Part shown: piece after piece, positions 25,063 through 50,009 of the stretch | Position numbering within the stretch: the first letter of the stretch is position 1 | How the letters are laid out: every line of letters starts with the position of its first letter | Sequence record: MG049919 | Reading direction: 5' to 3' (one strand) | From: Shigella phage vB_SflS-ISF001 | Length of the DNA: 50,552 bases | Notes under the pieces: generated by a model | What the model saw: the letters and a program-made list of their open reading frames with translations, nothing else | Told to the model about the DNA's origin: nothing | Databases searched by the model: none | Made by a program: the position numbers and the translations under genes

Positions 25063-25102
25063 AGAATAGTGCAAACTTGATACGATGATTTTACAGAAAT
25101 GA

Positions 25103-28828: not shown

Positions 28829-28846
28829 CGTCAAAGTATTTTTGTG

Positions 28847-35513: not shown

Positions 35514-35534
35514 CGTTTAACATTTAGTGCTATT
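35514..35534 (-). promoter_or_regulatory. 20-mer motif copy upstream of TerS
   Basis: Minus-strand ATAGCACTAAATGTTAAAC about 15 nt upstream of RBS, after a terminator hairpin. Confidence 0.45.
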
Positions 35535-37082: not shown

Positions 37083-37288
37083 GCCTCTTCCGCCTCATCT
37101 GCGATCGGTGTAAAAGACTGAGTGTACACTGCCAGGTTGTAATAAACCCAGTCATCATAGTCGCTATCTTTCACTTCAATGAACACGTCGCAACCGTCAT
37201 GCATGAAATCAGCGTTATCAGTATGAACGCGTTCGAATACTTCAGAACTTTTATTGCAAGTGAAAAACTTATCAACTGACACCATCAT
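37079..37288 (-). CDS. small acidic protein (69 aa)
   Basis: ORF track; first gene behind promoter cassette at 37345-37364; Asp/Glu-rich. Confidence 0.45.
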   Translation of the reverse strand: MMVSVDKFFTCNKSSEVFERVHTDNADFMHDGCDVFIEVKDSDYDDWVYYNLAVYTQSFTPIADEAEEA

Positions 37289-37344
37289 TTCGATTTTCTC
37301 TCTTCGTTGTCGATGAGGTGACTATATCAAATCACCCCACCGAC

Positions 37345-37364
37345 GTTTTAGCAATTAGTGCTAT
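37345..37364 (-). promoter_or_regulatory. early promoter cassette (20-mer + 22 bp + TATAGT in hairpin)
   Basis: Minus-strand ATAGCACTAATTGCTAAAAC; TATAGT within GGTGA/TCACC hairpin; leader CATCGACAACGAA. Confidence 0.6.
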
Positions 37365-37933
37365 TTGTTGATGAACGTAGCGGCTATGTGCAGAGCGGTA
37401 ATTTCAGGATGAACCTCAACAGAGAAGAAATCACATTCCTGATAACCGTTAACCCCGATCATATCGTCCAGGTAGATATAATCGCGACTGTCGTTATCGA
37501 AGTTGCAAACGTTGCGATGTATGCGGCATAGCTTGACCTGGATATCGCCTTCAATCATTTGCAAGATTTCGTCTTTGAATGCCCCGTCAGTAAATCCCGA
37601 AAGTAAGTGCGACTCTTTAACCTTACTTGCCGCTCGCATACCGCAGAATCGATATCCGTACTGCGGCTTGATGACTGCCTCGCTAATCCAGATCATAAAC
37701 TGGCGCGGGCTTTTACCGTTCAGGATTGACGCTGGCTCTTCTTTGTAACGACGGTCCTCATACAAGAACATGAAATACTCGTAGTTACTCCCACCCGAGA
37801 TTTCCCGAGCAATCTCAAACGTTGGTGCTTTGAAGCTGCGGAGCGCTACGTGATCGTAAGTGTCAGCCGGGATGCATCCGATAGTGTCTTTTCCCGCTCC
37901 AGGTGCGCCGTTTAAAATGATAGCTGTTTTCAT
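37361..37933 (-). CDS. P-loop nucleotide/polynucleotide kinase (dNMP kinase-like)
   Basis: Walker A GAPGAGKDT at residues 9-17, size about 190 aa. Confidence 0.6.
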   Translation of the reverse strand: MKTAIILNGAPGAGKDTIGCIPADTYDHVALRSFKAPTFEIAREISGGSNYEYFMFLYEDRRYKEEPASILNGKSPRQFMIWISEAVIKPQYGYRFCGMRAASKVKESHLLSGFTDGAFKDEILQMIEGDIQVKLCRIHRNVCNFDNDSRDYIYLDDMIGVNGYQECDFFSVEVHPEITALHIAATFINK

Positions 37934-38049
37934 GTTAGTATCTCCCTAAAAATAACTTTGCCACATTGATGATAGTGTGATTGATGATTAACAGGATGAT
38001 AACCGTCAATACCGGATGTGCTGCAATAAATTCGTATAGGTTCATTCAT
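37930..38049 (-). CDS. hypothetical small protein (39 aa)
   Basis: Not in ORF track; overlaps HAD stop and kinase start; weak RBS. Confidence 0.2.
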   Translation of the reverse strand: MNEPIRIYCSTSGIDGYHPVNHQSHYHQCGKVIFREILT

Positions 38050-38575
38050 CCACCCCGTGAGATTTTAAATGATCGTGAACGTTATCGCCATAGACAACTA
38101 CAGCGTAAGTGGTTATTGCAAGCGAGCGGAATAATGGAATAATTTGCGGTGAGTCATCCCAGGCCGCCAGAATGTTATCAATCCCGATCACGCGCACCGC
38201 CTCTTCTTTCATTGCTGTGTCTTTCCGGCTATCGGTGTGTGGTCGCATAATCAGGTAATCATATCGAGCGCCGTGATGCTTAAGCAACAACTCATATGCG
38301 TAACGCACCTCATCACTTCGCCCGGTCAAAATGATCACATGATAACCAGCGGAAAACGTAGAGTTCATCACACCGATCGTGCTTTGGATAGGGTTGTCAA
38401 ATATTGCCGCGCGGTTAAACTCGGACCAGATTTCAGTCAAGTGCAAATCTTTTGTCGGCAGCAAATGACGTCTACCGGATCCGTCATTAAGTGTCCCGTC
38501 AGAGTCAAAGATTGCGCCGCGGCGCAGACCGAGATACAGGTTGATTGTCTGGCCCCAAATGGTGATTTTATCCAT
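38042..38575 (-). CDS. HAD-superfamily phosphatase (polynucleotide 3'-phosphatase-like)
   Basis: HAD motif I FDSDGTL near N-terminus; CAGAGGAA RBS; promoter cassette upstream. Confidence 0.6.
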   Translation of the reverse strand: MDKITIWGQTINLYLGLRRGAIFDSDGTLNDGSGRRHLLPTKDLHLTEIWSEFNRAAIFDNPIQSTIGVMNSTFSAGYHVIILTGRSDEVRYAYELLLKHHGARYDYLIMRPHTDSRKDTAMKEEAVRVIGIDNILAAWDDSPQIIPLFRSLAITTYAVVVYGDNVHDHLKSHGVDE

Positions 38576-38640
38576 GATTTATTCCTCTGATTGGTTGCTT
38601 AACTCAACGAAGGGCATTCTAACAAATGCCCTTGAGCAAG

Positions 38641-38660
38641 TTTTAGCAATTCGTGCTATT
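38641..38660 (-). promoter_or_regulatory. early promoter cassette
   Basis: Minus-strand AATAGCACGAATTGCTAAAA; TAGAAT 22 bp downstream in AGGGCATT/AATGCCCT hairpin. Confidence 0.6.
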
Positions 38661-39105
38661 ACCAGCATCTGATCTCGTATTCAGCCGAATCGTCAAAATC
38701 ACTTCGGCAGTATGTGCCACTATAATTTTCCATCATTTTATCGATCAGGAAGTAGCGCAACTCACCGTTACAATAGAAGTATGAATCAGCAACGTTACGC
38801 GCCCAGTGCCCAGCCTCCTTCTTGCTCATCTTCCAGTGCTTCATTGCACTCTTCTTGAATGCACGCACGACGCGCTTGGGGATCTTAATGTGCTTGTACA
38901 CCTCGTTGCATCCGTAGGCCATATATTCGTTATCGCCAAGATTCCGCATAATGTACGGATTTAATTCTTTTGACGTAATCATCAGATCGCCACCGCCGTG
39001 ACGAGCATCATAAATACCTGCTGTCATGTAGTGACCTTTGAACATACCAATGCCGTGCAAAGTGTACTCAGCGTTAGGCGTTTCAATGCAAATTAAGTGT
39101 TTCAT
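38659..39105 (-). CDS. hypothetical protein (148 aa)
   Basis: Start at internal ATG with GAGGAAG RBS (track ORF to 39147); promoter cassette upstream. Confidence 0.45.
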   Translation of the reverse strand: MKHLICIETPNAEYTLHGIGMFKGHYMTAGIYDARHGGGDLMITSKELNPYIMRNLGDNEYMAYGCNEVYKHIKIPKRVVRAFKKSAMKHWKMSKKEAGHWARNVADSYFYCNGELRYFLIDKMMENYSGTYCRSDFDDSAEYEIRCW

Positions 39106-39160
39106 GAGTGCTTCCTCGTTTGTTGGTGTAGGGGAATCATAGCGCATTCCCCTTGATAGG

Positions 39161-39180
39161 TTTTAGCAATTCGTGCTATT
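39161..39180 (-). promoter_or_regulatory. early promoter cassette
   Basis: Minus-strand AATAGCACGAATTGCTAAAA; TATGAT 22 bp downstream in AGGGGAAT/ATTCCCCT hairpin. Confidence 0.6.
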
Positions 39181-39381
39181 CGTTATAATAGTGATGGAAA
39201 AATAATTTTTAAAGCACGTCACCCCTCGCGCTAAATCGACTTGTGGGAGCCTTGAAATTTCGTGGGCCAATTCCACTGCCGACACGTCAGATTTGTAGTA
39301 GAGTGCGATTCTGCAGGTATTTGGGGGCATTCCTTCCACTGCGTCAGGCGCTGCATCTTCTGCTGTCATGATAGTAGCCAT
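39163..39381 (-). CDS. hypothetical protein (72 aa)
   Basis: ORF track; C-terminal codons NSTNC-stop are encoded by the 20-mer motif. Confidence 0.4.
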   Translation of the reverse strand: MATIMTAEDAAPDAVEGMPPNTCRIALYYKSDVSAVELAHEISRLPQVDLARGVTCFKNYFSITIITNSTNC

Positions 39382-39496
39382 AAAACCCCCTTAAGAGATA
39401 ATGTCAGGACCAGGAGGCAGAATAGCAACTCCTGAAATGATGGCGGCTCGTTATTCCAGTTAGAAAAGTCTGGCATAGTGTTTTCTCCAAAAGAAA

Positions 39497-39532
39497 GGGG
39501 AACCGCTCAGAGTCGATTCCCCGTTAAAATTA
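39497..39532 (-). terminator. terminator-like hairpin after gene 39530-40168
   Basis: GGGGAA...TTCCCC stem with T-rich tail on minus strand. Confidence 0.4.
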
Positions 39533-40168
39533 CATGATGAACATCAGCGAAATCGAAGCGACCAGGAGAACAAGAGCGATAGCTAGGCCAGACAAGTCTG
39601 CTTTCTCTTCAAACTTCATTGCTGGCTTGCGGTCAACATTAATAGGCTTGACGTTGCTAATCTTGCTGGTGTTGATCTTGCCAATGACGCGGGAGGAGCG
39701 CTTGCGGTTCTTGCCGAACGTTGCGAACTTAGTGCCTGCACTGTTCCAACGAAGTCCTTCGCCATTATGCGTTACGGTACCGATGCGGTGACGGCCCGTG
39801 TCGTGAGTAAGCGCTACAGTGTGCTTTGCCTGCTCAGTAGGAACGTCGTAGTTTTTTCCAACACTAAATATTTTGGTGATATCGCTGATACATTCAAATT
39901 TCAAAAATTTTACCTCTTTATTATGCAGTTGTTTGATTGCTTCCATTACGTCTCTAAATATAACACCATCCACGATTCGATGGAAGATATATTTTGAACT
40001 ACCGCAATACGGCTGGAAAATTTCCTGGTTCTCGTGAGGACGGATGATGTTAACGTTGCTACCGTGCTCATCCACGACAACGAAGCTCTCGTCATTGACG
40101 TGAGCGCCTTCGTAGATTTTTCCCCACTTATAGCCCGATCCGTTACTTGATACGCATTCAAATTTCAT
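39530..40168 (-). CDS. tail-anchored membrane protein (212 aa)
   Basis: C-terminal TM LSGLAIALVLLVASISLMFIM; internal KFEC repeat; terminator downstream. Confidence 0.45.
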   Translation of the reverse strand: MKFECVSSNGSGYKWGKIYEGAHVNDESFVVVDEHGSNVNIIRPHENQEIFQPYCGSSKYIFHRIVDGVIFRDVMEAIKQLHNKEVKFLKFECISDITKIFSVGKNYDVPTEQAKHTVALTHDTGRHRIGTVTHNGEGLRWNSAGTKFATFGKNRKRSSRVIGKINTSKISNVKPINVDRKPAMKFEEKADLSGLAIALVLLVASISLMFIM

Positions 40169-40172
40169 TTTT

Positions 40173-40460
40173 CTATGGTCTAACCTTCCTATAAGGCATG
40201 ATTGATAACATCACGAATTGCGTGAAGTCGCATTCCTGATCGTCATTCCCGCGATTGATGTATGGAGTCTCGTCTGTAACATCGCATACCCTGGCGTGAA
40301 CTTCCCACCCGCTAAACTCACCCCGATGGAACTCTCGTAGCTGCAAGATATCGCCAATGTGGAAGTTGCGGTCATTGTTGCGGAACTCTGCCGTTATGGT
40401 TCCCTTCTTTACTCCAATGAAAGGTACCGGGTTAATTTTTAACTTATGACTCTTGCTCAT
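40173..40460 (-). CDS. ASCH/PUA-like domain protein (95 aa)
   Basis: GVKKGTITAEFR...GDILQLRE resembles ASCH-type fold signature; promoter cassette upstream. Confidence 0.4.
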   Translation of the reverse strand: MSKSHKLKINPVPFIGVKKGTITAEFRNNDRNFHIGDILQLREFHRGEFSGWEVHARVCDVTDETPYINRGNDDQECDFTQFVMLSIMPYRKVRP

Positions 40461-40523
40461 GATGCCTCACTGATTGGTTGCCATTCTTCAATAAGGCCAC
40501 TATATCAAATGGCCTTGCGGAAG

Positions 40524-40541
40524 GTTTAGCAATTCGTGCTA
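40524..40541 (-). promoter_or_regulatory. early promoter cassette
   Basis: Minus-strand ATAGCACGAATTGCTAAA; TATAGT 22 bp downstream in GGCCA/TGGCC hairpin. Confidence 0.6.
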
Positions 40542-40687
40542 TCGTTTAACGCACATAGTTTTTACTTCTTGTCCGAACGGTTTGTTTTCTGCAATCACCT
40601 CCCGACCTCTTTCGCATCGTTGCTGACTTTCCATGTATACGTGATCCGGCCCGGTGCTCATCAAGATAATCAAGACCCATGCAGCCA

Positions 40688-41194
40688 TTATTTCACCTGA
40701 TAGGGGACGAGCGTTCCGCGCGTAGTGCTGATTACACCTGATACGGTCTTGTTCTTGAAGCCGCCGTGAAGCAATAGAATCCTGATGATATGGTCGTGCA
40801 CCTCAATAGTTTTTGGTGTCGCGGTAGTCTCAATCCAAGAATGGCTGTTAATCTGGACACCTTTTTGCGTTGCGCTAAGTGGCACGTTCTCGATCTGAGT
40901 ACACTGTAGCGATGGCTTGATTTCTAGCTTTCCAGCTTTGAATATTGAGCCTTCAATCTTCCAGCTATCATACAAGCTGTAAGTATTCTGATTGACGCTC
41001 ATATTGTAGTAGTAGTCCTTATCTGGTGAATTTTCTTTATTCACTCCGTTATGTCTGGCAATAAACGACTCCAGCATAAGCTGCGATACCTCATCAGTGG
41101 CGCACGTTCCCTTATCATCACTGGTGAACGTAATTACACCACATCCCATGCTGATAAATTTGATCGGGAATATGACTTCTTCTCGTTTCAACAT
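40688..41194 (-). CDS. hypothetical protein (168 aa)
   Basis: ORF track; AAGAGGAA RBS; promoter cassette upstream. Confidence 0.5.
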   Translation of the reverse strand: MLKREEVIFPIKFISMGCGVITFTSDDKGTCATDEVSQLMLESFIARHNGVNKENSPDKDYYYNMSVNQNTYSLYDSWKIEGSIFKAGKLEIKPSLQCTQIENVPLSATQKGVQINSHSWIETTATPKTIEVHDHIIRILLLHGGFKNKTVSGVISTTRGTLVPYQVK

Positions 41195-41249
41195 AATGAT
41201 TTCCTCTTAGTGGTTGATATGGGGATTGTACCAGTCAGGCCAAATCCCC

Positions 41250-41269
41250 TTTTAACAATTCGTGCTTAG
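41250..41269 (-). promoter_or_regulatory. early promoter cassette
   Basis: Minus-strand CTAAGCACGAATTGTTAAAA; TACAAT 22 bp downstream in GGGGATT/AATCCCC hairpin; upstream gene stop TAA embedded. Confidence 0.6.
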
Positions 41270-41754
41270 TAAACCAACTCGCACTCAATATCGAACGGCT
41301 CGCCGTTCCAGACGAAGAAGCAAAGTGCCTCTATATTCATCCCGCCGATAAATCCAACGGCTTTCAACTGCTCATCGTTAACGTATGCCAGGTTGCTAGT
41401 AATTCTTTCAAAGTCAACGATAACCGGGAACGTGGGATTCTCATACTCCCAGCGCATCGGGTAGCCGCCATTACTGAGAAGTCGAACCTTGGGCGGCTTA
41501 GGATTTGCTTGGACTTCCCATTCAAAGAACGACATCGTTCCGTCATTCTCGTTTTTGTCAGCCGGACCAAATACATGGCTAACCGAAAGTCCATAGTCCA
41601 GATCGTACACGCCAGCAAAAACCAGATCGTCAACCTTAACGCGGTAGCCTGTAGTGCTGGAATCACACTTCACCGCATCAACCACGATAGGGTCAGCTTC
41701 CAGGTCGCGAGTAAAGCCTTTGTAACCGCCAGTGCACAGTAATTTAATTTTCAT
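41266..41754 (-). CDS. hypothetical protein (162 aa)
   Basis: ORF track; GAGGA RBS; promoter cassette upstream; stop codon embedded in next 20-mer. Confidence 0.5.
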   Translation of the reverse strand: MKIKLLCTGGYKGFTRDLEADPIVVDAVKCDSSTTGYRVKVDDLVFAGVYDLDYGLSVSHVFGPADKNENDGTMSFFEWEVQANPKPPKVRLLSNGGYPMRWEYENPTFPVIVDFERITSNLAYVNDEQLKAVGFIGGMNIEALCFFVWNGEPFDIECELVY

Positions 41755-41809
41755 GTTATCGTCCTCGTTCGTTGTCGATGTGGTTACTATATCGCAACCA
41801 CATGATCGC

Positions 41810-41831
41810 GTTTTAACAAAAAGTGCTATTC
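41810..41831 (-). promoter_or_regulatory. early promoter cassette
   Basis: Minus-strand ATAGCACTTTTTGTTAAAAC; TATAGT in GTGGTT/AACCAC hairpin; leader CATCGACAACGAA. Confidence 0.6.
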
Positions 41832-42017
41832 TTTAATTTCGAAGCAAAGCGTATCTTCATCGAATTCCCAGGGATCGCCATTATCATCAAGCAATGAGAT
41901 GTTACCGAAGCTGGTTAGCGAACGGTTATAAGGCTTGTCGACAGTATTCCAGTCCTTTACTTCCTCATCTTTGCTACCAAAGAATACTGCAATCATTTGG
42001 TGCATAAAATCAGCCAT
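41826..42017 (-). CDS. small acidic protein (63 aa)
   Basis: ORF track; AGGA RBS; hairpin upstream. Confidence 0.4.
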   Translation of the reverse strand: MADFMHQMIAVFFGSKDEEVKDWNTVDKPYNRSLTSFGNISLLDDNGDPWEFDEDTLCFEIKE

Positions 42018-42026
42018 TTTTAAATC

Positions 42027-42200
42027 CTATTCGCAAGTGATCTCATTTGATGAGATTGGTAGCTTAACAAAGCCAACCATCACTTTCGTAGTAACCTGGC
42101 TGGGGGTCTTGTGACAGCTATCAGTGACCTCTCCGCAGCCTGATTCTATCAGGATAGCCAGAGCGACCGACACCATCATGCAAATCTTTATTCGCATCAT
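42027..42200 (-). CDS. small exported/lipoprotein-like protein (57 aa)
   Basis: Start at internal Met of ORF 42027-42284; N-terminal hydrophobic segment ending ESGC (non-canonical lipobox). Confidence 0.35.
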   Translation of the reverse strand: MMRIKICMMVSVALAILIESGCGEVTDSCHKTPSQVTTKVMVGFVKLPISSNEITCE

Positions 42201-42307
42201 TCGAACGCCCCAGCACACAAGAGCAACATTACCACGATGCCAACCATGACGTGACCCATGCAGAAGAACCAGACGGCAGACCATAAAGCAATTGTATTGA
42301 AGTTCAT
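42197..42307 (-). CDS. small membrane peptide (36 aa)
   Basis: Internal ATG of ORF 42197-42412 with AGGTG RBS; single TM WSAVWFFCMGHVMVGIVVMLLLCAGAF. Confidence 0.35.
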   Translation of the reverse strand: MNFNTIALWSAVWFFCMGHVMVGIVVMLLLCAGAFE

Positions 42308-42531
42308 TTTAGCACCTCGATCTTGTTGTTGGGGATTGAGTTCACTACGATCGCTTGCGAGTTTTCTCCCGTGATTCGTATGTAGAAGTTGCCAATCGCC
42401 GCCAAGAACCACTGACCGCGAAATTTCAAATAAATTCCGTGCTTTGCAGGCATAGCGTAGTGAGTGGATTTTGCCGGAATCATGTACCCGTTTACGTGGG
42501 TGAGTTTAGTCTGAAAATTGTAACGTGGCAT
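42304..42531 (-). CDS. hypothetical protein (75 aa)
   Basis: ORF track; GAGGAA RBS. Confidence 0.4.
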   Translation of the reverse strand: MPRYNFQTKLTHVNGYMIPAKSTHYAMPAKHGIYLKFRGQWFLAAIGNFYIRITGENSQAIVVNSIPNNKIEVLK

Positions 42532-42537
42532 AATTAT

Positions 42538-42768
42538 TTATTCCTCAATTAAGGTGCTGATATCATCTTTGCCCTGGAGCAGTGCATTCCAGTCTAGGAA
42601 GTTTGCAAGGTTTTCGCACCACACGGACTTTCCGTTATCTTCCTTGTAGGTTTTGTATCCACCCGGCACGGCTTTGACTGCAAAGCGGTGAACTATCGAT
42701 GTGATGAAAATAGCAAAGCGGTTGTTATTCCTTGAATCGATGGCTAGCTGGTTCTTGACGATTGACAT
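42538..42768 (-). CDS. hypothetical protein (76 aa)
   Basis: ORF track; AACCAATCAGAGGA leader and promoter cassette upstream. Confidence 0.5.
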   Translation of the reverse strand: MSIVKNQLAIDSRNNNRFAIFITSIVHRFAVKAVPGGYKTYKEDNGKSVWCENLANFLDWNALLQGKDDISTLIEE

Positions 42769-42829
42769 GGTTAATCCTCTGATTGGTATCTCGTTTCGAT
42801 GGGGTAACTATAGCAAGATGCCCCGATCC

Positions 42830-42851
42830 GGTTTTAACAATTCGTGCTATT
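42830..42851 (-). promoter_or_regulatory. early promoter cassette
   Basis: Minus-strand ATAGCACGAATTGTTAAAAC; TATAGT 22 bp downstream; leader ATCGAAACGAGA. Confidence 0.55.
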
Positions 42852-43317
42852 TAGTGAGATACTTTACGCCTGTTCCGGCAACCTCATTCCAGACATCCTC
42901 AAAGTGTACGCTATAGCAAGTTGCAGAACGCAGGCGTTCCTTCGACACAGTGCGCCACACCTTACGTCCCGAGTAACCAGTCAGTACTCGGATCCCTGGC
43001 AACAACGCACCCGACTTTCTCACCTTAATGGCAACAGCTGAACCAAGCCCGAACGACTCAAGGTCAACTGGGTCAATCATATCGCACATGCGGCGATCTT
43101 CGTTCTCGTCTGCCCATTCACAGCCATCTCTACACTTCATAACTTCAATAATACATACCAATTTCTCAGTTAGTGAGTTTGAACCATATGTGTCTATATC
43201 AATAACCGTGCAGTGACTGTACATATGGGAATGCGATCCGGTAAAATGCTCAAACGCGAAGAATGACATTTCATCATCAAGCACATCTTTAGCCAGAAAT
43301 ACGGTAATGGTTGTCAT
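42847..43317 (-). CDS. hypothetical Cys/His-rich protein (156 aa)
   Basis: Start at internal ATG overlapping upstream stop (track ORF to 43389). Confidence 0.45.
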   Translation of the reverse strand: MTTITVFLAKDVLDDEMSFFAFEHFTGSHSHMYSHCTVIDIDTYGSNSLTEKLVCIIEVMKCRDGCEWADENEDRRMCDMIDPVDLESFGLGSAVAIKVRKSGALLPGIRVLTGYSGRKVWRTVSKERLRSATCYSVHFEDVWNEVAGTGVKYLTK

Positions 43318-43319
43318 GA

Positions 43320-43514: not shown

Positions 43515-43569
43515 CTTTGTTTCCTCATTCGTTGTCGATGGGATAACTATACCAGGTTATCCCGATCCG

Positions 43570-43591
43570 GTTTTAACAAAAAGTGCTATTC
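43570..43591 (-). promoter_or_regulatory. early promoter cassette
   Basis: Minus-strand ATAGCACTTTTTGTTAAAAC; TATAGT in GGGATAAC/GTTATCCC hairpin; leader CATCGACAACGAA. Confidence 0.6.
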
Positions 43592-43915
43592 TACAATGAA
43601 CACGACGTCGGTGTTTTCGGACCCTTCCGGTTTCGTAATGTTCATAAGCTCACAGTGCGGAACCTCAAGGCTTTTCATCTTGAGGGTTATCTTGTACCCA
43701 TTCAAGATTTCGTGAATAAGTCTAAGAACCTTCTCTGACGCCTCTTTCTTGCTAAGACCCCTTACGTCGTACGTTGGGCCAATAGTATTAAGGTTTACTG
43801 AGATTAAAACTTTACCAGTCACGGCATCAGCTATCTTGTTGTTGTTCTCTTCCTGCTTCTCGCTATCCAGCGTTCGTCTATCCATCACCTTCGTATCAAA
43901 CATGTTAGTAAACAT
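43586..43915 (-). CDS. hypothetical protein (109 aa)
   Basis: ATG with AAGGGGG RBS at 7 nt (track ORF begins at GTG 43921). Confidence 0.45.
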   Translation of the reverse strand: MFTNMFDTKVMDRRTLDSEKQEENNNKIADAVTGKVLISVNLNTIGPTYDVRGLSKKEASEKVLRLIHEILNGYKITLKMKSLEVPHCELMNITKPEGSENTDVVFIVE

Positions 43916-43927
43916 AATCACTCCCCC

Positions 43928-44503
43928 TTACAGTCCGCACTTTTCTTTATGCGCACTCATCTGGCGAACCAGGTCGCGCACGGCACTTACAGTTATGTCG
44001 CCTTTCTCAATGTCATCATTATCAGGAACAAACCAGTCAAGGTAGTCAGCCGGGCTAACTCTTTTCCGGGTGAGGCGCTTCTTCACCGGAACCTCTTCGT
44101 CACTCACGGAAATAGTAACGACTCGCAACTTCTCATCGATCATGGTCACGCTCACCTTGACCCACTTGCCGATTTTGGAGAAGTGTCGCGATACGATCGG
44201 GGTGATTTCTGAGGATTTAAACTTCTCGATAATCTCTTCGGTCCGCCCAAGCAACCAGGACCCGGCGCACTCGACAACATCATAATCGTCGACGTCTGGC
44301 ATTGACTTCCTCACACAGGCCTCAGCCATCTGAGTAGCGTCGAATGTGAACTCAGTATTCACGCCATCACCATAAAGCTGATCGCAAGCGGCCCGGATAA
44401 CATCAGACACCTTAACCTCCTGGCGCTGCTCAACCGTTACCCCAGCCTTCTCGGAACCTGCCTGCATTGCTGCCTGAACCGCATCTGATTGGTAAGAACT
44501 CAT
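43928..44503 (-). CDS. hypothetical protein (191 aa), first gene of leftward early unit
   Basis: Start at internal ATG with AAGGAG RBS (track ORF to 44593); adjacent to control region B. Confidence 0.5.
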   Translation of the reverse strand: MSSYQSDAVQAAMQAGSEKAGVTVEQRQEVKVSDVIRAACDQLYGDGVNTEFTFDATQMAEACVRKSMPDVDDYDVVECAGSWLLGRTEEIIEKFKSSEITPIVSRHFSKIGKWVKVSVTMIDEKLRVVTISVSDEEVPVKKRLTRKRVSPADYLDWFVPDNDDIEKGDITVSAVRDLVRQMSAHKEKCGL

Positions 44504-44920
44504 AGGTTTCTCCTTAGTTTCAATATACACAATGATTAACGCGTAACAGCGCGTCTCTAATTGCAGTGTTACACGACGACCCGCCTGCGTCAAGGCTTGC
44601 AGGTCGATTTTAAGTGTGGTTAATCGTGTTAATCGTGTTAATCGCTTTCCCCATATAAATATGAGCCGATAAAACTACTGTATATATAAACATGAATACA
44701 ATAATCAGAGCATCCAACGATTAACATAGTAGACACGCTATACAACCATATTACAGATAATAGTATCTATATATATAAATAAAAAAAATACTTATATATT
44801 ATATATATACATATAGATATATGTATATTATAAGGCGTAATTTGGTGTAATTTTGTCTACTATTGAGATTCAGGCAAATTGTAGACAACTGTTAACACAC
44901 GGTCAAGTGTAACCGTAATC

Positions 44921-44940
44921 GATAGCACGTTTTGCTAAAA
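44921..44940 (+). promoter_or_regulatory. 20-mer motif copy inside control region B (no obvious -10 or gene)
   Basis: ATAGCACGTTTTGCTAAAAA; about 265 nt upstream of first rightward gene. Confidence 0.4.
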
Positions 44941-45125
44941 ATGGAGATAACCACCAGGCGAACCGGGTAACACCAGATCCTCCCTCTCACAATCATTGCA
45001 TTCTAAGCAACAAATAAACCAACTGTTGCACACCGTGCAATAATCACGTTTCATCATTCGTAATCAATAACAATCAAGGTTATTACACCTATTCCAGTAT
45101 TGATGGAATAATGAGCAATTATTGG

Positions 45126-45145
45126 AATAGCATTTTTTGCTAACG
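45126..45145 (+). promoter_or_regulatory. early promoter cassette for rightward unit
   Basis: ATAGCATTTTTTGCTAACG; tandem GGTCGGGTA x2 then GTATAG 22 bp downstream; leader AACCAATCAGAAGAGGAAG. Confidence 0.55.
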
Positions 45146-45205
45146 ACTCGGTCGGGTAGGTCGGGTATAGTCCGGCCCATAAACCAATCAGAAGAGGAAG
45201 CAACA

Positions 45206-45910
45206 ATGAAATTAATCTGGTCACTATACGACGGTTCTGGTCTTGCAAATCTTGAGCTAGCAAAGCAAGGCCATAAGGTGATGTGCTTCAACTGGGACGG
45301 AGCCGATCACGGAGTTTACGCAAAGTACAACGCCAGGGTTGAGCGTCATAACATTGAGTATGTGAACGTCTTTATTAATGAGAAGTTCGAACGTGATGCT
45401 ACCGCGCCTGTGTATGGCAAGCCTGATTTAATCAGGGCATTTCCTCAATGCACTGACCTGGCTGTTAGTGGCGCTGGTCACTTCGTAAGAAAGCGTGAGC
45501 GAGATCCGTTATTCCAGGAGAAGGCTGTTGCTACCGCCGGGATTGCTGCGAATATTGGCGACTCTCTTGGCGTGACTTACATATTTGAGAATCCGGTGAG
45601 TGTCCTGTCATCTGCCTGGAGAAAACCAAATCACTCCTTCAACCCCTGGGAGTATGGCGGCTATCTTCCTGAGAATGACGCACACCCCAAGTTCCCTATG
45701 TATATTGCGCCGCGCGATCGTTATCCGAAGAAAACTTGTCTTTGGACCTCGGACGATTTTGTCACACCGGAGAAAAAAAAAGTAAGCCTGCCTGACGGGT
45801 ACTCTACGCATCACAGCAAGCAGGGCAGCAAGTCGGTAAAGACGAAGCTGATACGATCCCTGTCGCAGCGTGGATTTTTCCCGGCGATCGCAAATAGCAC
45901 TTTTTGTTAA
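45206..45910 (+). CDS. putative DNA methyltransferase (weak C5-cytosine-like motifs)
   Basis: LYDGSG (motif I-like), FPQCTDLAVSGAG (PC-motif-like), IFENPV (ENV-like); ATG with AGAGGAAG RBS (track ORF from 45137); assignment tentative. Confidence 0.4.
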   Translation: MKLIWSLYDGSGLANLELAKQGHKVMCFNWDGADHGVYAKYNARVERHNIEYVNVFINEKFERDATAPVYGKPDLIRAFPQCTDLAVSGAGHFVRKRERDPLFQEKAVATAGIAANIGDSLGVTYIFENPVSVLSSAWRKPNHSFNPWEYGGYLPENDAHPKFPMYIAPRDRYPKKTCLWTSDDFVTPEKKKVSLPDGYSTHHSKQGSKSVKTKLIRSLSQRGFFPAIANSTFC

Positions 45911-45913
45911 AAC
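45894..45913 (+). promoter_or_regulatory. early promoter cassette
   Basis: ATAGCACTTTTTGTTAAAAC overlapping last codons and stop of methyltransferase-like gene; CATAAT 22 bp downstream. Confidence 0.55.
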
Positions 45914-45970
45914 TCGATCGGTGCGATTTGGCATAATTACCTCATCGAAACGAGATTGAGGAAAAACAAA

Positions 45971-46156
45971 ATGGCACGTCGCATCACTAATGACCTTAAA
46001 GTTCTGAACAAAGTTAACGTAGTTATTATCCAGGTTATTTGGGGATACAACGAAGTGTCAGTAAAGCAGAAGCTAGAGGCTCCTTATGACTTGGCTGTCA
46101 AGGCAATGCCTTCCGACGATCGCAATTTCATTGCAAACTATGTAGCATTCTTCTAA
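45971..46156 (+). CDS. hypothetical protein (61 aa)
   Basis: ATG with GAGGAAAAA RBS (track ORF from TTG 45956); promoter cassette upstream. Confidence 0.45.
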   Translation: MARRITNDLKVLNKVNVVIIQVIWGYNEVSVKQKLEAPYDLAVKAMPSDDRNFIANYVAFF

Positions 46157-46171
46157 TTAACGGGCTAACAA

Positions 46172-46357
46172 ATGAAAACGAAATTAGTGAACAAATCAGA
46201 AATCAAGAACGGCGATACTCTGATTGTCAACGGAGAGTTAAGGACGGTTGATAAGCAGTCAATAGTCAGAGATGAATTTTTGGGTCTGTTGTTGTTCGCC
46301 GACTCATATTGCCTAGGATACTTAAAAGTCGAGCTTGTTGTGGATGTAAAATTCTAA
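46172..46357 (+). CDS. hypothetical protein (61 aa)
   Basis: ORF track; stop immediately followed by 20-mer motif. Confidence 0.4.
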   Translation: MKTKLVNKSEIKNGDTLIVNGELRTVDKQSIVRDEFLGLLLFADSYCLGYLKVELVVDVKF

Positions 46358-46377
46358 ATAGCACTTTTTGTTAAAAC
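46358..46377 (+). promoter_or_regulatory. early promoter cassette
   Basis: ATAGCACTTTTTGTTAAAAC directly after stop codon; TATAAC 22 bp downstream; leader AACCAATCAGGAG. Confidence 0.55.
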
Positions 46378-46432
46378 ACGCCCGGTTAATCAGGGTATAA
46401 CTCCAACATAAACCAATCAGGAGAATGACTAG

Positions 46433-46813
46433 ATGACAGATTCAAATCTTCGGGCAGCAATTGACCGCGCAAATGACAAGCTATTCACAGATGAGTTTTG
46501 CAATCGCCTGCTGGGCGGGATAATGCACCCCAGCAACCGGGTTGTTATCACGCAACGCGATACCGGGATCAGTATCACGGATATCAATACCATTGAAGAG
46601 CATAAAAGCATGATTTCTTATATCTTGCGTTACGACGGATCGGTTGAGTTCGGAAAGCTGGACGGTGACGAGAAGGAGGCTGTCATTGACTTCCTTCTCG
46701 AAAACGTGAGTCTCGTGTTCGAACAGCGACTGGATTACCCAACGACTCGTTGGGATTGCGACATGATGGACGCAAACAACCGTATCCCTGAAATCCTGGA
46801 GGAAAGATTATGA
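46433..46813 (+). CDS. hypothetical protein (126 aa)
   Basis: ORF track; AACCAATCAGGAG leader; promoter cassette upstream. Confidence 0.5.
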   Translation: MTDSNLRAAIDRANDKLFTDEFCNRLLGGIMHPSNRVVITQRDTGISITDINTIEEHKSMISYILRYDGSVEFGKLDGDEKEAVIDFLLENVSLVFEQRLDYPTTRWDCDMMDANNRIPEILEERL

Positions 46814-46983
46814 TCGTATATATCGTTATGGGCGGCGAAACATATGAGGGTCAATATCGAGATACTGTTCACGTTGATTTTAAGAAGGCGAAGCAGTACA
46901 CAAACAGAAACAAGCAACAGATTCGCGGGGGATTTAGCATGTACGACTTAACGACGAATGTTGTGAAGGAAATTACCGAATAG
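46810..46983 (+). CDS. hypothetical small protein (57 aa)
   Basis: Not in ORF track; ATG overlapping upstream stop (ATGA), GGAGGAAAG RBS 6 nt upstream. Confidence 0.45.
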   Translation: MIVYIVMGGETYEGQYRDTVHVDFKKAKQYTNRNKQQIRGGFSMYDLTTNVVKEITE

Positions 46984-46998
46984 CACTTTTTGCTAAAC
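46979..46998 (+). promoter_or_regulatory. early promoter cassette
   Basis: ATAGCACTTTTTGCTAAACG (perfect TAGCA-N5-TGCTA); TATAGT in GGGATGACT/AGTCATCCC hairpin. Confidence 0.6.
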
Positions 46999-47054
46999 GC
47001 TCATCCGGGATGACTGGTATAGTCATCCCATCAACAGCAAGCGAGGAAAGAGTT

Positions 47055-47426
47055 ATGTTTAAGCATTTCACAGATCTGGACAACTCAGCCAGCTTAGCAA
47101 TCCTGACTGCCGAGAAAGAAAGCGAAGCGATCGAGTTCAACGAGCGCAAGACTTACAACACGCAAGAGAAGGTCGTGAGAGCACCTCTAACCGCCTCTTA
47201 TGGTGTGACTGATGCAATCGAGTGCGTTAACCTCGTAACGTGCGTGGTGGACCGTTCGGGCGTGTCTACTTTCGTCGATCCCGACACTGGAGAGAAAATC
47301 ATCCAGCTAAACAACCCATCTATGCGTACTGAGTTAGGCAATATTGCACTGTGGGGAGTTGCTTCCTATTCAATCACCGTCAACACATGTGTAGCGGATC
47401 GTGTTATGGAGGCATTGTATGAATGA
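47055..47426 (+). CDS. hypothetical protein (124 aa)
   Basis: ATG with GAGGAAAGAG RBS (track ORF from 47010); promoter cassette upstream. Confidence 0.5.
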   Translation: MFKHFTDLDNSASLAILTAEKESEAIEFNERKTYNTQEKVVRAPLTASYGVTDAIECVNLVTCVVDRSGVSTFVDPDTGEKIIQLNNPSMRTELGNIALWGVASYSITVNTCVADRVMEALYE

Positions 47427-47619
47427 TAATATTTACCGCGTAGTTGGCATCTCACGCATAACGCAATGGACTGTGATCACTTACATGGGTAGTAGCGCCA
47501 TTGAACGTACGGATGCCACCGAATTATTGAAGAACAACGAGGCAAATATGAACACGTTGCGCGTTCGACTTGAACGCCTCGAGCCTGTTATCAATGATGA
47601 AGCGCGAAAGCTATCCTGA
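47419..47619 (+). CDS. hypothetical protein (66 aa)
   Basis: ATG with GGAGG RBS overlapping upstream stop (track ORF from GTG 47401). Confidence 0.45.
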   Translation: MNDNIYRVVGISRITQWTVITYMGSSAIERTDATELLKNNEANMNTLRVRLERLEPVINDEARKLS

Positions 47620-47636
47620 CTGGTTAAGGGGGAGCA

Positions 47637-47957
47637 ATGAAACACACTTACAAAATCAGAACGAAGTACCCGAAGTTTAACGGAACCACGGATGCGGCAC
47701 TGAATAACGCCGCGGCAATTCACGAAAAAAAGATCACGGAGCCCGTGAAGGCGGTGGTAGGTAGATTCTACGGGATCAATGCCGACATTGCCGACAGCAA
47801 GCGACTGTTCAAATACGTTCCAGGTCTACCATATGGCAGGATGATTAGTATCAAGCATGAAAAAGTATTGGTTCGAATCGGATCCCTAAGCTATGATGAG
47901 TTCGATCATAAACTTTGTCTGCTGACGGCGTATCAAACTTGGGACGGTAAAAAATGA
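47637..47957 (+). CDS. hypothetical protein (106 aa)
   Basis: ORF track; AAGGGGGAG RBS. Confidence 0.5.
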   Translation: MKHTYKIRTKYPKFNGTTDAALNNAAAIHEKKITEPVKAVVGRFYGINADIADSKRLFKYVPGLPYGRMISIKHEKVLVRIGSLSYDEFDHKLCLLTAYQTWDGKK

Positions 47958-48097
47958 TTTATATTCACACTTTCTATACTGGCAAATTTAACAGCGTAAA
48001 AAATGTTCGCGTTTACGATAGCCACCAAACAGCAATGATGCAGAGAGTAGTTCTAGGCGGCACAATCAAAGAGTGCAAAGTAATTTCTGAGTACTGA
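47954..48097 (+). CDS. hypothetical small protein (47 aa)
   Basis: Not in ORF track; ATGA overlap with upstream stop; stop followed by 20-mer motif. Confidence 0.3.
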   Translation: MIYIHTFYTGKFNSVKNVRVYDSHQTAMMQRVVLGGTIKECKVISEY

Positions 48098-48116
48098 TAG
48101 CACGAATAGCTAAAGA
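48098..48116 (+). promoter_or_regulatory. early promoter cassette
   Basis: ATAGCACGAATAGCTAAAG; TATATT in GGGAGTA/TACTCCC hairpin. Confidence 0.55.
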
Positions 48117-48173
48117 CAATCAGCAGGGAGTAAGGTATATTACTCCCACACCAAACAAACAAAGGAATTAAAA

Positions 48174-48398
48174 ATGAGCATTAAAGTTGAGATTATCATC
48201 AAGCTCCTGAACGCGTTAGGCCGTGTAGTTATCAAATTGGATAAGTCTTCCGGTTTTATTTCAATGACGGTAACTAAGACTCGTAACGGTAATAACCTTA
48301 TCGGCACCACGCCAGGCTCCCGCTTAATAAATGCAACAGATGCTGATGCGCGCGCTACGCTTGAGGCTAACACAATTCACATTAATTCATGGAGTTAA
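48174..48398 (+). CDS. hypothetical protein (74 aa)
   Basis: ORF track; AAAGGAA RBS; promoter cassette upstream. Confidence 0.5.
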   Translation: MSIKVEIIIKLLNALGRVVIKLDKSSGFISMTVTKTRNGNNLIGTTPGSRLINATDADARATLEANTIHINSWS

Positions 48399-48401
48399 TT
48401 G

Positions 48402-48614
48402 ATGGAACGGGATAATTTCTCCACTCGTTATAAAGCCGCTCTTGATCGGGGGCTTAGTGCGGAATGGTGTATCAAGGTTGCATATAAAGAAATTACGCAA
48501 CACGTAGAGCTAGGGAATATGGATATGGACGCAGAAAGTGAATATAATCCCGACTCCGAGGTGCCAGACGATGATGTTGGTGATAATGACGACGACGATT
48601 ATATTCCCTGGTAA
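48402..48614 (+). CDS. small acidic protein with SSB-tail-like C-terminus (70 aa)
   Basis: ATG with GGAG RBS (track ORF from TTG 48399); C-terminus PDDDVGDNDDDDYIPW resembles SSB C-terminal DDDIPF. Confidence 0.5.
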   Translation: MERDNFSTRYKAALDRGLSAEWCIKVAYKEITQHVELGNMDMDAESEYNPDSEVPDDDVGDNDDDDYIPW

Positions 48615-48631
48615 ATAGCACGATTTGTTAA
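48615..48631 (+). promoter_or_regulatory. early promoter cassette
   Basis: ATAGCACGATTTGTTAA; TAAAGT 22 bp downstream in AAGGTCA/TGACCTT hairpin; leader AACCAATCAGGAG. Confidence 0.55.
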
Positions 48632-48694
48632 TATTGCCGTAAGGTCATTTGATAAAGTGACCTTATTCAAGATAACCAATCAGGAGTTAACGAA

Positions 48695-49057
48695 ATGAAA
48701 TCCATCAAACTGAAATGCACTTACGCAAATAAAAACTTACCATTTGAAGTAAACAACCTATACAAGGGTCGTGAGCGCTATGATGGCACTCGCGAAGTAA
48801 AATTAAAATGCGGCAAGTATTTAAAACTTGAAAAGCATGATGTTTTACAGATTCACGGATCTGATGAAATCTTCTTCGCGAAGTTCTTTGAGTGGACACG
48901 GAAGACGCTCAAGTGTACCGGGCTTGACCATCGCAACCCAATGAAAAAATCATTCAAAGTTGGCAAGCGTTACCAGGTTGAAAGCGGTCGCGCTCTCGGT
49001 GGCGTAGCTGGTTACATCTTTGATGAAGATGGTTGTCGCTCGCCCCTATTTATCTAA
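48695..49057 (+). CDS. hypothetical protein (120 aa)
   Basis: ORF track; AACCAATCAGGAG leader; promoter cassette upstream. Confidence 0.5.
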   Translation: MKSIKLKCTYANKNLPFEVNNLYKGRERYDGTREVKLKCGKYLKLEKHDVLQIHGSDEIFFAKFFEWTRKTLKCTGLDHRNPMKKSFKVGKRYQVESGRALGGVAGYIFDEDGCRSPLFI

Positions 49058-49114
49058 GAGGTTGGTTTTAGTATCGGAGACGGCACAACCTTTGAGGCCA
49101 AATACTTATAACCA

Positions 49115-49133
49115 ATAGCACTTTTTGCAAAAC
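49115..49133 (+). promoter_or_regulatory. early promoter cassette
   Basis: ATAGCACTTTTTGCAAAAC; TATCAT 22 bp downstream in GGCGGTGTA/TACACCGTC hairpin. Confidence 0.55.
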
Positions 49134-49187
49134 GCGTGTACCATTGGCGGTGTATCATTTACACCGTCAACTAAGGAGTTTATTGTG

Positions 49188-50009
49188 ATGTTTAATATTA
49201 AGCCAAAACTGTTTTACCAACAGATTATTGAGATCGCCAATAGCACTGGAGTTAATCCGGTGGCGATCGCAATTCGTGAAAACAGCTATGGTGACTCAGT
49301 TTCATTTTGGCAAGATCCGATCGATATCAATAGCGGCAACGATAAGTTTCCTCTGATTTCGTTAGGTGGCGATAACCTGGTATTCGAATATGCAAAAGCA
49401 AAGGCCGAGTCTGTACAGTTCCCTGTTTCGTCTGCGTACGCTCATTTCATTGGGTGCATCTCAGCCGCGATGCTCGGGAAGTTTTGGGTGCAATATCACG
49501 GAGAAGAGCAACCTACCGCTCTTTACATGGTAATCAGCCAGCCACCTTCAACAGGTAAATCTGCGATTAACTCCGCAGCGATTACGCCTATGCGCGCAGA
49601 GATTCAGCGACTGAATGAAGAGCGAAAAAAGGAACGTATCCGTTTAACCAGTCAGCTACGTCAGGTCGAGAAGGAAATTAAAAACGACCCGAAGGGTAAC
49701 ACGACGGCGGCGCTGTACGAGGACAAAGAAAAACTGGAAGAAAAGATCAAGAAGATGGCTGATATTGTTTTCGCGGTATCAGATCCTACACCTGAAGGTC
49801 TTGCGAAGGTGGCGGCTGTTCAAGGTCACTTCTCAGTAATCTCTGATGAGGCGACAGCAATCAATACATTGCTCGGACTGAATTATGGCGGTTCTGATAA
49901 GAAATCAAACAGCGAACTTATCCTTAAGGCGTGGGATAAAAACCATATGGAGGTCGCGCGTTCAAACCAAGACAACAACTTACTTCTATCCCCGAACGGT
50001 TCGATCTAG
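49188..50009 (+). CDS. hypothetical protein with degenerate P-loop-like segment
   Basis: ATG with AAGGAG RBS (track ORF from 49125); QPPSTGKSA resembles a degenerate Walker A; coiled-coil Lys/Glu-rich middle. Confidence 0.5.
   Translation: MFNIKPKLFYQQIIEIANSTGVNPVAIAIRENSYGDSVSFWQDPIDINSGNDKFPLISLGGDNLVFEYAKAKAESVQFPVSSAYAHFIGCISAAMLGKFWVQYHGEEQPTALYMVISQPPSTGKSAINSAAITPMRAEIQRLNEERKKERIRLTSQLRQVEKEIKNDPKGNTTAALYEDKEKLEEKIKKMADIVFAVSDPTPEGLAKVAAVQGHFSVISDEATAINTLLGLNYGGSDKKSNSELILKAWDKNHMEVARSNQDNNLLLSPNGSI

Follow-up and report, generated by a model that had tools for sequence, protein, structure and literature searches.

Shigella phage vB_SflS-ISF001 (record MG049919), a T1-like Tunavirus of the family Drexlerviridae to which Shigella phage ISF002 gives a 95% match, was analysed over a stretch of 50,552 nucleotides, hereafter the window. 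A first-pass annotation of this DNA had drawn attention to the range 37288-49190, in which the genes diverge from an AT-rich non-coding region at ~44.5-45.2 kb, running leftward on the minus strand at 37.3-44.5 kb and rightward on the plus strand at 45.2-49.2 kb and beyond. Repeated in front of these genes is a compact intergenic unit of ~75 bp, which we call the cassette, consisting of a 20-mer (TAGCACNNNTTGYTAAAA), a -10-like hexamer and a hairpin. The nature of this 20-mer, the promoter that it seems to be part of and the role of the hairpin are the subject of this report.

With up to two mismatches the 20-mer, whose core form is TAGCAC-N3-TTGYTAAAA, is found in 26 copies in the window, compared to 0.41 expected from shuffles. 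The element is genome-wide: 16 of the 26 copies lie within 37288-49190, the others in the replication, recombination and lysis modules and, in small number, in the structural region. All gene-proximal copies are on the coding strand of that gene, and cassettes are also found upstream of helicase, primase, Dam, recombination and lysis genes. The first-pass annotation had described early promoters copied across about 20 units. The range itself holds slightly fewer and the window as a whole more, and "early" describes only part of them, as the genes just listed are preceded by cassettes too.

A fixed distance between the 20-mer and a -10 hexamer

Spacing was surveyed in 76 copies of the 20-mer taken from the window and from the phages T1, DTL and Sushi. 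A good -10-like hexamer follows TTGYTA at exactly 22 bp in 55 copies and at 23 bp in four, whereas none of the 76 copies has a good -10 match at 16-18 bp, the best match of a single copy falling at 17 bp and being weak. The first-pass annotation had placed the hexamer at 22 bp and had concluded that TTGYTA is not the -35 box of sigma70; both statements hold over this larger sample. In the 55 aligned copies G occupies position -14 in 47 (85%), TG positions -15/-14 in 25 (45%), and the seventh base past the hexamer is A in 49, usually with C before it. Judged by its letters, this combination of hexamer, TG and C-A is the signature of a sigma70 -10 promoter, in part of the extended type, together with its start site. 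The ungapped alignment has the consensus aAATAGCACtttTTGyTAAAAc-N-tGgTAtaaT-tacc-CAtcgAaa. Every 20-mer has an A/T tract at its centre (TTTTT, GAATT or TAATT), and runs of A occur on its flanks.

A -35 box is missing from this arrangement. Across 62 cassettes of five genomes (the window, T1, DTL, Sushi and Motto) the match to TTGACA at the canonical -35 position averages 1.6 of 6 and never exceeds 3, and canonical -35/-10 promoters in the region show no excess (26 versus 29 expected from shuffles). Downstream of the start, a leader of the form CATCGA(C)AACGA recurs in six copies and the ribosome-binding site (RBS) context AACCAATCAG in seven, in agreement with the shared leader and RBS context that had been noted before.

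The 20-mer as a probable class II marbox

The published consensus of the marbox, or soxbox, is AYNGCACNNWNNRYYAAAYN (PMC2064960, PMC3709825). Read from its second base, the 20-mer (A-T-A-GCAC-nnW-TT-G-Y-T-AAA-A-c) matches 13 of the 14 specified positions of this consensus. A search of the window with AYNGCACNNWNNRYYAAAYN allowing at most one mismatch gave 23 sites against 1.25 expected; these are the cassettes plus two extra sites at 12591(-) and 18873(-), and shuffled genomes hold ~1 marbox each. The parts of a marbox are present in order, RE1 as GCAC, a 7-bp spacer and RE2 as YAAA, within 20 asymmetric base pairs. The core of the class II site at micF, given as CAC(T/G)-N7-AAA in the cryo-electron microscopy paper on RamA, has the same form as the phage core. 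The 15-bp phage cores differ by 0-3 substitutions, mostly by 1-2, from sites bound by MarA, SoxS, RamA or Rob in Salmonella chromatin immunoprecipitation sequencing (ChIP-seq) data (PMC10268841), and the core at 49118-49132 is identical to one Salmonella RamA/SoxS site of that set. At 44925-44938, 14 consecutive bases (CACGTTTTGCTAAA) are common to the phage and the marbox of the E. coli mar operator (marRAB). The first-pass annotation had taken a palindrome for the functional site; in the light of these matches the site is most likely an asymmetric marbox of 20 bp, the type of site that monomeric activators with a pair of helix-turn-helix (HTH) motifs read.

The geometry agrees with the sequence. 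In class II promoters controlled by Mar/Sox/Rob the marbox lies in forward orientation over the -35 position, in a cluster around -41, and a -35 box cannot be recognised; the activator contacts region 4 of sigma, which is even displaced from the -35 DNA. The phage marbox is likewise forward, always on the coding strand, and extends from -50 to -31 relative to the predicted +1 with its centre at ~-41, so that the earlier placing of the upstream element at a class II activator position stands. From the end of the marbox to the hexamer there are 18 bp, equivalent to the 22 bp counted from TTGYTA. The hexamer is found at exactly this distance in 16 of 23 marboxes of the window, 13 of 21 in T1, 9 of 14 in DTL, 10 of 12 in Sushi and 14 of 16 in Motto, the 62 cassettes mentioned above. 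At micF of E. coli K-12, exactly 18 bp separate the marbox (ACAGCACTGAATGTCAAAAC) from TAGAAT, and the gap measures 18 bp at nfo, 18 bp at sodA and 17 bp at fumC; Martin et al. are said to have classed these four promoters as class II in 1999. For the Salmonella class II set the mean agreement with TTGACA is 1.9 of 6, with no case above 3, much like the phage cassettes, and the -35 box would be missing because the marbox covers its position.

We therefore propose, with a probability of about 0.62, that the 20-mer is a marbox of the MarA/SoxS/Rob type in a class II promoter, combined with an RNA stem-loop that belongs to the upstream gene. The cassettes agree with one known promoter class in four independent respects, namely sequence, orientation, distance and the lack of a -35 box, all of them read from DNA. 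A host activator that is monomeric and carries two HTH motifs would bind GCAC (RE1) and YAAA (RE2) and would recruit RNA polymerase as at micF, the candidates being Rob, MarA or SoxS in Escherichia and Shigella, with RamA in addition in Klebsiella and Salmonella. Some two dozen transcription units of the phage would in this way be under a host activator of antibiotic and stress responses. The order would be a marbox from -50 to -31, a free gap of 18 bp, a -10 hexamer that is often extended by TGn, and a C-A start 7 nt downstream, with the stem-loop separate from promoter recognition. The proposal that these promoters are activator-dependent or otherwise non-canonical survives in this form: they are non-canonical and, from their sequence, probably activator-dependent sigma70 promoters, whereas the palindrome and the restriction to early genes are dropped.

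The cassette shares with the class II promoters of E. coli and Salmonella (micF, nfo, sodA, fumC) the asymmetric, forward 20-bp marbox centred near -41, the absence of a -35 box, the sigma70 features at the -10 and the start and, with micF, nfo and sodA in particular, the gap of 18 bp. It differs from them in being carried by a phage, in the ~25 near-consensus copies within 50 kb where host sites are degenerate, and in its fusion to an RNA hairpin or terminator and overlap with the upstream stop codon. An activator near -41 or -42 that offsets a missing or poor -35 box, as proposed here, is familiar from galP1-type promoters, which have an extended -10, no -35 box and CRP at -41.5, and from lambda PRM with cI at -42. 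The activators of galP1 and PRM are dimers on palindromes, whereas the asymmetric phage site fits a monomeric activator of the AraC/XylS type. In the middle promoters of T4, with MotA box and AsiA, the -35 box likewise gives way to an activator box, which keeps a constant distance to a sigma70 -10; T4 uses its own MotA and AsiA and a box at -30, whereas here equivalents of these proteins were not found and a box of host type lies at -41.

Who reads the element? The cassette is unchanged in T1, in DTL (Loudonvirus), in Sushi (Webervirus), in Motto and in two distant metagenomic contigs (L007 and L008). Among ISF001, DTL, Sushi and L008, orthologous proteins share only 30-68% identity, and most of the small early genes are unshared. 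With E. coli MarA as the query, no phage homologue was found by tblastn against seven phage sequences or by phmmer against the open reading frames of the window (best E = 0.3), and a Pfam search of 30 window proteins, 10 of them also compared with PHROGs, showed no AraC-type protein, sigma factor or other obvious DNA-binding protein besides a single regulator, discussed below. As the 20-mer is essentially invariant while the phage proteins diverge, and as a phage MarA is missing, a host protein is the likely reader. The involvement of a phage protein, which the first-pass annotation had allowed for, is not needed, since no MarA homologue is present and the sole HTH regulator does not co-vary with the motif.

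That regulator is the basis of a competing explanation, which we consider unlikely, namely that the 20-mer is the operator of the 150-aa Cro/YdaS-like HTH protein (homologue of T1 gp23), bound as a dimer on the dyad TAGCA-N5-TGCTA at -42 and either activating the cassettes or later shutting them off. The gene is a core gene, present in 823 phage records, its product does contain an HTH domain, and the 20-mer does hold an inverted repeat of 5+5 bp. Canonical sigma70 promoters are few, and this gene has one of them, which would be in keeping with a cascade; in phage TLS, P57, one of only three canonical promoters, lies where the homologue, putatively gp57, is expected. The gene is moreover flanked by 20-mers, one of them in its own 5' untranslated region (5'UTR). 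Against this, the distant homologues P0029 and P0031 (31-33% identical) differ in helix 3 at every predicted base-contacting position, and yet the 20-mer and its spacing are unchanged on their contigs, L007 and L008. The 20-mer is in addition directional, with about half of the copies breaking the dyad (TGTTA), and binding by this protein would leave the marbox match in sequence, orientation and 18-bp spacing unexplained. The AlphaFold model of the protein is poor outside the HTH core (predicted local distance difference test score, pLDDT, 54) and adds no support. The protein has no sequence relative in the PDB; distant homologues were absent from the viral_contigs scans, and GenBank phages gave only ordinary Drexlerviridae relatives.

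Some features of this locus are recorded for their own sake. Residues 14-33 of the regulator (D-x-R-x-x-NGNNGT-x-RG-x-DK) are the most conserved part of the family, above the HTH. The -10 hexamers of the regulator promoter (7991-7996) and of the helicase cassette (7992-7997, minus strand) are arranged back to back, and the helicase marbox falls in the 5'UTR of the regulator, an arrangement kept in T1, TLS, L007 and L008.

It is also conceivable, if distinctly improbable, that the cassettes are constitutive extended -10 promoters that require no factor, the 20-mer acting on RNA polymerase itself as an UP-like element, a curved A/T tract or a displaced -35 box. The G at -14 and the TG described above would suit such promoters, as would the A/T tract in the centre of the 20-mer and its flanking A-runs; the invariance across phage genera fits the host polymerase as the reader, and an UP-element role was suggested by the authors of the TLS paper (PMC11447400). 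The 20-mer, in contrast, contains invariant GCAC and TTG, at odds with the UP consensus (A/T-rich, -59 to -38, without conserved G/C), and a 22-bp spacer is beyond the reach of sigma region 4. With TG absent and the hexamer imperfect in about half of the copies, these would be weak alone, and the agreement with the marbox in sequence and geometry would become a coincidence.

Other binding sites were compared with the 20-mer. A sigma54 (-24/-12) promoter, TGGCAC-N5-TTGCW, has similar blocks (TAGCAC, TTGCT) and was rejected, as the spacing is N3 in every copy. The Lrp site yAGhAwATTwTdCTr is matched by the cassettes at 12-14 of 15 positions, but matches of at least 12 of 15 occur 90 times in the window and 93 times in shuffles, and this unspecific consensus was set aside as too degenerate. 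Compared by eye, the boxes for Fis, IHF, CRP, FNR, OmpR, PhoP, GadE, DeoR/GntR and LysR-type regulators gave no fit. Among the matches listed for the exact 19-mer in bacterial genomes there were scattered single occurrences and one orthologous coding match, and no host regulatory site. That match (ATAGCACTATTTGCTAAAA) lies, among the same matches, at one orthologous and apparently coding locus in Enterobacter, Citrobacter, Leclercia and Silvania (Enterobacteriaceae chromosomes L021, L041, L047, L069, L074, L077 and L087); it has no -10 hexamer at 18 bp and is probably conserved coding sequence rather than a promoter.

Several points weigh against the class II marbox and its host reader. Rob has the highest affinity for the same sequence and is largely aggregated or sequestered under standard conditions (PMC10268841). 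MarA and SoxS are low under standard growth (PMC10268841), whereas growth of T1-like phages is rapid. Basal activity may come from the extended -10, and sites close to consensus may capture a scarce activator. Classical T1-resistant mutants map to fhuA and tonB and are not known to map to mar, sox or rob, which could be explained by the redundancy of the three paralogues or again by basal activity of the extended -10. Pseudomonas phage Motto (ON843697), whose reported host is P. aeruginosa, keeps 16 cassettes and has the same G+C content, 45.0%, as coliphage T1. P. aeruginosa is not known to have MarA, SoxS or Rob; the host assignment of Motto looks doubtful, or else a different reader exists. 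The phage copies strongly conserve A19 as well as A3, T11 and T12, three positions given as N in the published consensus, as could be expected from an additional or different reader, an objection tempered by the frequency of TTGC in the ChIP-seq sites. Finally, the marboxes at 18854-18873, 35514-35533, 44922-44941 and 9558-9577 stand outside class II geometry.

Hairpins in the gap and the discriminator

The stretch of 35 nt between -32 and +3 folds with a mean minimum free energy of -10.4 kcal/mol, compared to -4.6 kcal/mol for shuffles (p = 8e-10), and the sense strand folds more stably than the antisense strand (-10.4 versus -8.5 kcal/mol, p = 8e-5). Two hairpin registers dominate, with scattered ones besides. 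Class A hairpins, which make up most copies of the flagged range, are centred just 5' of the hexamer and hold it in the loop or 3' arm; class B hairpins, typical of 0.7-5.5 kb and of Sushi and Motto, lie wholly in the spacer and end at the hexamer. In about 12 of 15 promoters of the flagged range the hexamer is inside a hairpin, so the earlier remark that it usually is was accurate as a description. The stems of orthologous cassettes of ISF001, T1, EF3-1 and SA30RD have repeatedly changed from G-C or A-T to G-T, which can pair only as G·U on the sense strand, and compensatory changes are also seen, for example T-A to G-C at 41829.

As the sense strand folds more stably, and as G·U pairs and compensatory changes maintain the stems, we conclude that the structure is selected in the sense RNA. 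This RNA has to be read-through from the upstream gene, as the predicted start is placed at the 3' arm or beyond it. The stop codon of that gene is inside the 20-mer, where TAGCAC supplies a TAG or TTAAAA a TAA, or within ~10 nt of it, and because a stop in the marbox leaves no other free sequence, the hairpin occupies the gap and the discriminator. The position of the stop codon is sufficient to explain why the hexamer appears "inside" a hairpin. Instead of being a part of the promoter, as the first-pass annotation had it, the hairpin is on this evidence an RNA element or terminator of the upstream unit.

The two classes appear to serve that unit differently. Class B stems are GC-rich, often with a GAAA loop, and lead into a U-rich tail, for example UAUUAUUGUUUU; a GC stem-loop running directly into a U-tract is found in the class B copies and at 8512-8547, whereas the 3' arm of class A precedes CAUCGAAACGA instead. 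By these features class B hairpins appear to be true intrinsic terminators, of which the tail seems to double as the -10 of the next promoter, a use of the U-tract that sets them apart from ordinary intrinsic terminators. Class A hairpins lack a U-tract and are probably 3' stabilisers or attenuators in the read-through RNA. The annotators of T1 and SA30RD labelled class B hairpins terminators. A comparison with Rfam gave no matching family.

That the hairpin takes part in promoter recognition, either as a single-stranded hairpin promoter like those of N4 or by cruciform extrusion that shortens the spacer, is extremely improbable. The 12 or so promoters of 15 with an enclosed hexamer would suit it, and GCGAAAGC-type loops also form very stable DNA mini-hairpins. 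Class B hairpins, in contrast, exclude the hexamer; an extruded cruciform would remove 17-22 bp and not 5; the stems are kept by G·T pairs that exist on the sense strand only; and a promoter of the N4 type needs its hairpin at a fixed place, whereas two registers and scattered ones are seen. No RNA polymerase gene has been reported for the T1-like family (PMC11447400), which also argues against a hairpin promoter of this type, dependent as it is on a virion RNA polymerase.

The position of the 20-mer in the read-through RNA, just 5' of the hairpin, would in turn suit an RNA-level signal for processing or antitermination formed by the two together, or else the 20-mer could be a negative element of the stoperator type, an idea raised in the TLS paper (PMC11447400). 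Two copies lying between a -10-like hexamer and a start codon, where they would repress or belong to the 5'UTR, are in keeping with this pair of ideas, which we nevertheless hold to be very improbable: neither an RNA signal nor a roadblock would need a fixed spacing to an extended -10 and a C-A start, virulent T1-like phages have no known repressor, and the lack of an Rfam match speaks against an RNA signal.

Earlier accounts, cassette positions and further observations

A conserved repeat of T1-like phages has reportedly been noted since the T1 genome paper of Roberts et al. in 2004. The 2024 re-annotation of TLS lists 21 copies of a 21-nt direct repeat, aaATAGCACnnnTTGnTAAAA, oriented along transcription ~76 nt before start codons and present also in T1, Rtp and Rogue1, and its authors left the function open between a stoperator, an enhancer-binding site and an UP element (PMC11447400). 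This repeat of TLS, T1, Rtp and Rogue1 is the same element as the 20-mer, in the same orientation and at the same distance of ~76 nt to start codons. That account (PMC11447400) does not include the fixed -10 hexamer, the two classes of hairpin or the marbox identity, all three described here. Our literature search returned neither transcriptomes nor mapped start sites of any T1-like phage, and no paper joining the marbox or soxbox with T1-like phages; against the literature searched, the fixed extended -10 partner, the two RNA-selected hairpin classes and the class II marbox identity appear to be new.

The cassette would be a phage-borne example of a known promoter class, the class II marbox promoter, for which binding and activator dependence are predicted, and this offers a concrete and directly testable mechanism for phages without a polymerase or sigma factor of their own. 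T1-like phages are very common coliphages and Klebsiella phages. If the class II marbox is real, phage development is tied to the regulators of clinical multidrug resistance, MarA, SoxS, Rob and RamA, which matters for the combined use of phages and antibiotics and for how phages behave in the bile-rich gut, and compact near-consensus marbox promoters fused to terminators become usable as synthetic parts. A more far-reaching picture, which we put forward only tentatively and would not yet favour, is that the Drexlerviridae have wired most of their non-structural transcription to host MarA, SoxS, Rob and RamA, so that expression tracks antibiotic, oxidative and bile-salt stress; that the ~25 optimal marboxes of each replicating genome could titrate the four proteins and so weaken the multidrug-resistance response of the host; and that marboxes past the -10s of late operons, together with antisense cassettes, hold late genes back.

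Table 1. Positions of cassettes, marboxes and the HTH regulator gene in the window; unless noted otherwise, gaps run from the end of the marbox to the hexamer.
Feature	Span	Strand	Marbox	-10 hexamer	Hairpin	Gene start and details
Cassette	37314..37364	-	37345-37364 (ATAGCACTAATTGCTAAAAC)	18-bp gap, TGA-TATAGT 37321-37326	37312-37341; -16.4 kcal/mol sense vs -5.9 antisense	Predicted +1 37314; gene start 37288
Cassette, polynucleotide kinase gene	38609..38659	-	38640-38659	TGT-TAGAAT 38616-38621	38610-38633	Predicted +1 38609; gene start 38575
Cassette	39129..39179	-	39160-39179	TATGAT 39136-39141	39130-39153	Predicted +1 39129; gene start 39105
Cassette, DUF3850 gene	40492..40542	-	40523-40542 (0 mismatches)	TGA-TATAGT 40499-40504	40493-40516	Gene start 40460
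Cassette	41218..41268	-	41249-41268, degenerate (TAAGCACGAATTGTTAAAAG)	TGG-TACAAT 41225-41230	GGGGAT...ATCCCC across hexamer	Gene start 41194
Cassette	41779..41829	-	41810-41829	TATAGT 41786-41791	41778-41803; compensatory T-A to G-C in T1, EF3-1, SA30RD	Gene start 41754
Cassette	42800..42850	-	42831-42850	TGC-TATAGT 42807-42812		Leader CATCGAAACGA; RBS context ACCAATCAGAGG; gene start 42768
Cassette	43539..43589	-	43570-43589	TGG-TATAGT 43546-43551	43537-43567	Gene start 43514
Orphan marbox	44922..44941	+	44922-44941 (ATAGCACGTTTTGCTAAAAA)	None at 18 bp		AT-rich region between divergent operons
Cassette, C5-methyltransferase gene	45127..45178	+	45127-45146 (core GCATTTTTTGCTAAC)	19-bp gap, TATAGT 45166-45171		Gene start 45206
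Cassette	45894..45944	+	45894-45913	TGG-CATAAT 45932-45937		Leader CATCGAAACGA; gene start 45971
Cassette	46358..46408	+	46358-46377	TATAAC 46396-46401	46380-46396, short, in spacer	Gene start 46433
Cassette	46980..47030	+	46980-46999 (0 mismatches)	TGG-TATAGT 47018-47023	47007-47029	Gene start 47055
Cassette	48097..48148	+	48097-48116	19-bp gap, TATATT 48136-48141	48126-48147	Gene start 48174
Cassette	48615..48665	+	48615-48634	TGA-TAAAGT 48653-48658	48639-48666, rich in G·U	Gene start 48695
Cassette, DNA helicase gene	49115..49165	+	49115-49134 (core GCACTTTTTGCAAAA)	TATCAT 49153-49158		Gene start ~49185
Class B cassette, outside flagged range	725..775	+	725-744	TATATT 763-768	745-763, in spacer, ending at hexamer	
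Class B cassette, upstream of DUF7244-holin-endolysin-spanin block	2457..2507	-				Gene start 2434
Class B cassette	4445..4495	-			CCCGGC-GAAA-GTCGGG, then TATAGTTATTT	Terminator tail doubles as -10
Class B cassette, upstream of Dam methylase gene	5476..5526	-				Gene start 5455
Cassette, ATP-dependent helicase	7985..8035	-		7992-7997		Gene start 7954
HTH "transcriptional regulator", 150 aa, Cro/YdaS-like	8048..8500	+		TTGAAT (7968-7973)-17-TATAAT (7991-7996)		phrog_2856
Cassette, primase	8484..8547	+	8484-8503	TAACAT 8522-8527, in hairpin loop	ACGCGTAG/CTACGCGT, then TTTTTTATTTT	Hairpin and tail form a full intrinsic terminator
Cassette, Erf-like recombinase gene	12542..12591	-	12572-12591 (0 mismatches)	17-bp gap, TGT-TATAAT 12549-12554, in hairpin loop		
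Marbox, large tail-fibre gene	18854..18873	-	18854-18873			Between terminator-plus-TATAAT-like module and start codon
Cassette, antisense into late structural genes	25043..25093	+		TGA-TACGAT 25081-25086		Major tail/major head junctions; in T1 at 18849(-)
Cassette, antisense into late structural genes	28810..28860	+				Major tail/major head junctions; in T1 at 15085(-)
Marbox, terS	35514..35533	-	35514-35533			Between terminator-plus-TATAAT-like module and start codon

Two of the cassettes in Table 1 point against the direction of the late structural genes, and their conservation in T1 suggests early antisense transcripts. The marboxes in front of terS and the large tail-fibre gene lie downstream of the likely start, and hence likely in a repressing or 5'UTR position rather than an activating one; proteins of the MarA type are able to repress from such a place.

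A 9-mer, ACCAATCAG, was seen at 16 sites in the window against 0.4 expected, for example at 38587-38595 (minus), 45183-45191 (plus), 5712-5720 (plus) and 15783-15791 (plus). In eight cases a Shine-Dalgarno sequence and start codon follow closely on the 3' side; six copies are within genes on the antisense strand. The DNA helicase frame 49125-50009 stops at an in-frame TAG (50007-50009), while the T1 homologue has 522 aa; a sequencing error, a split gene or a pseudogene could account for the short frame. The non-coding stretch 44600-44910 contains three tandem GTTAATCGT repeats (44621-44650) and a TA-rich tract at ~44740-44830, in addition to the orphan marbox, and the best canonical promoter of the region, TTGACC-17-TACAAT, lies within it from 44906 to 44878 on the minus strand; this stretch may be an origin, a pac site or a control region.

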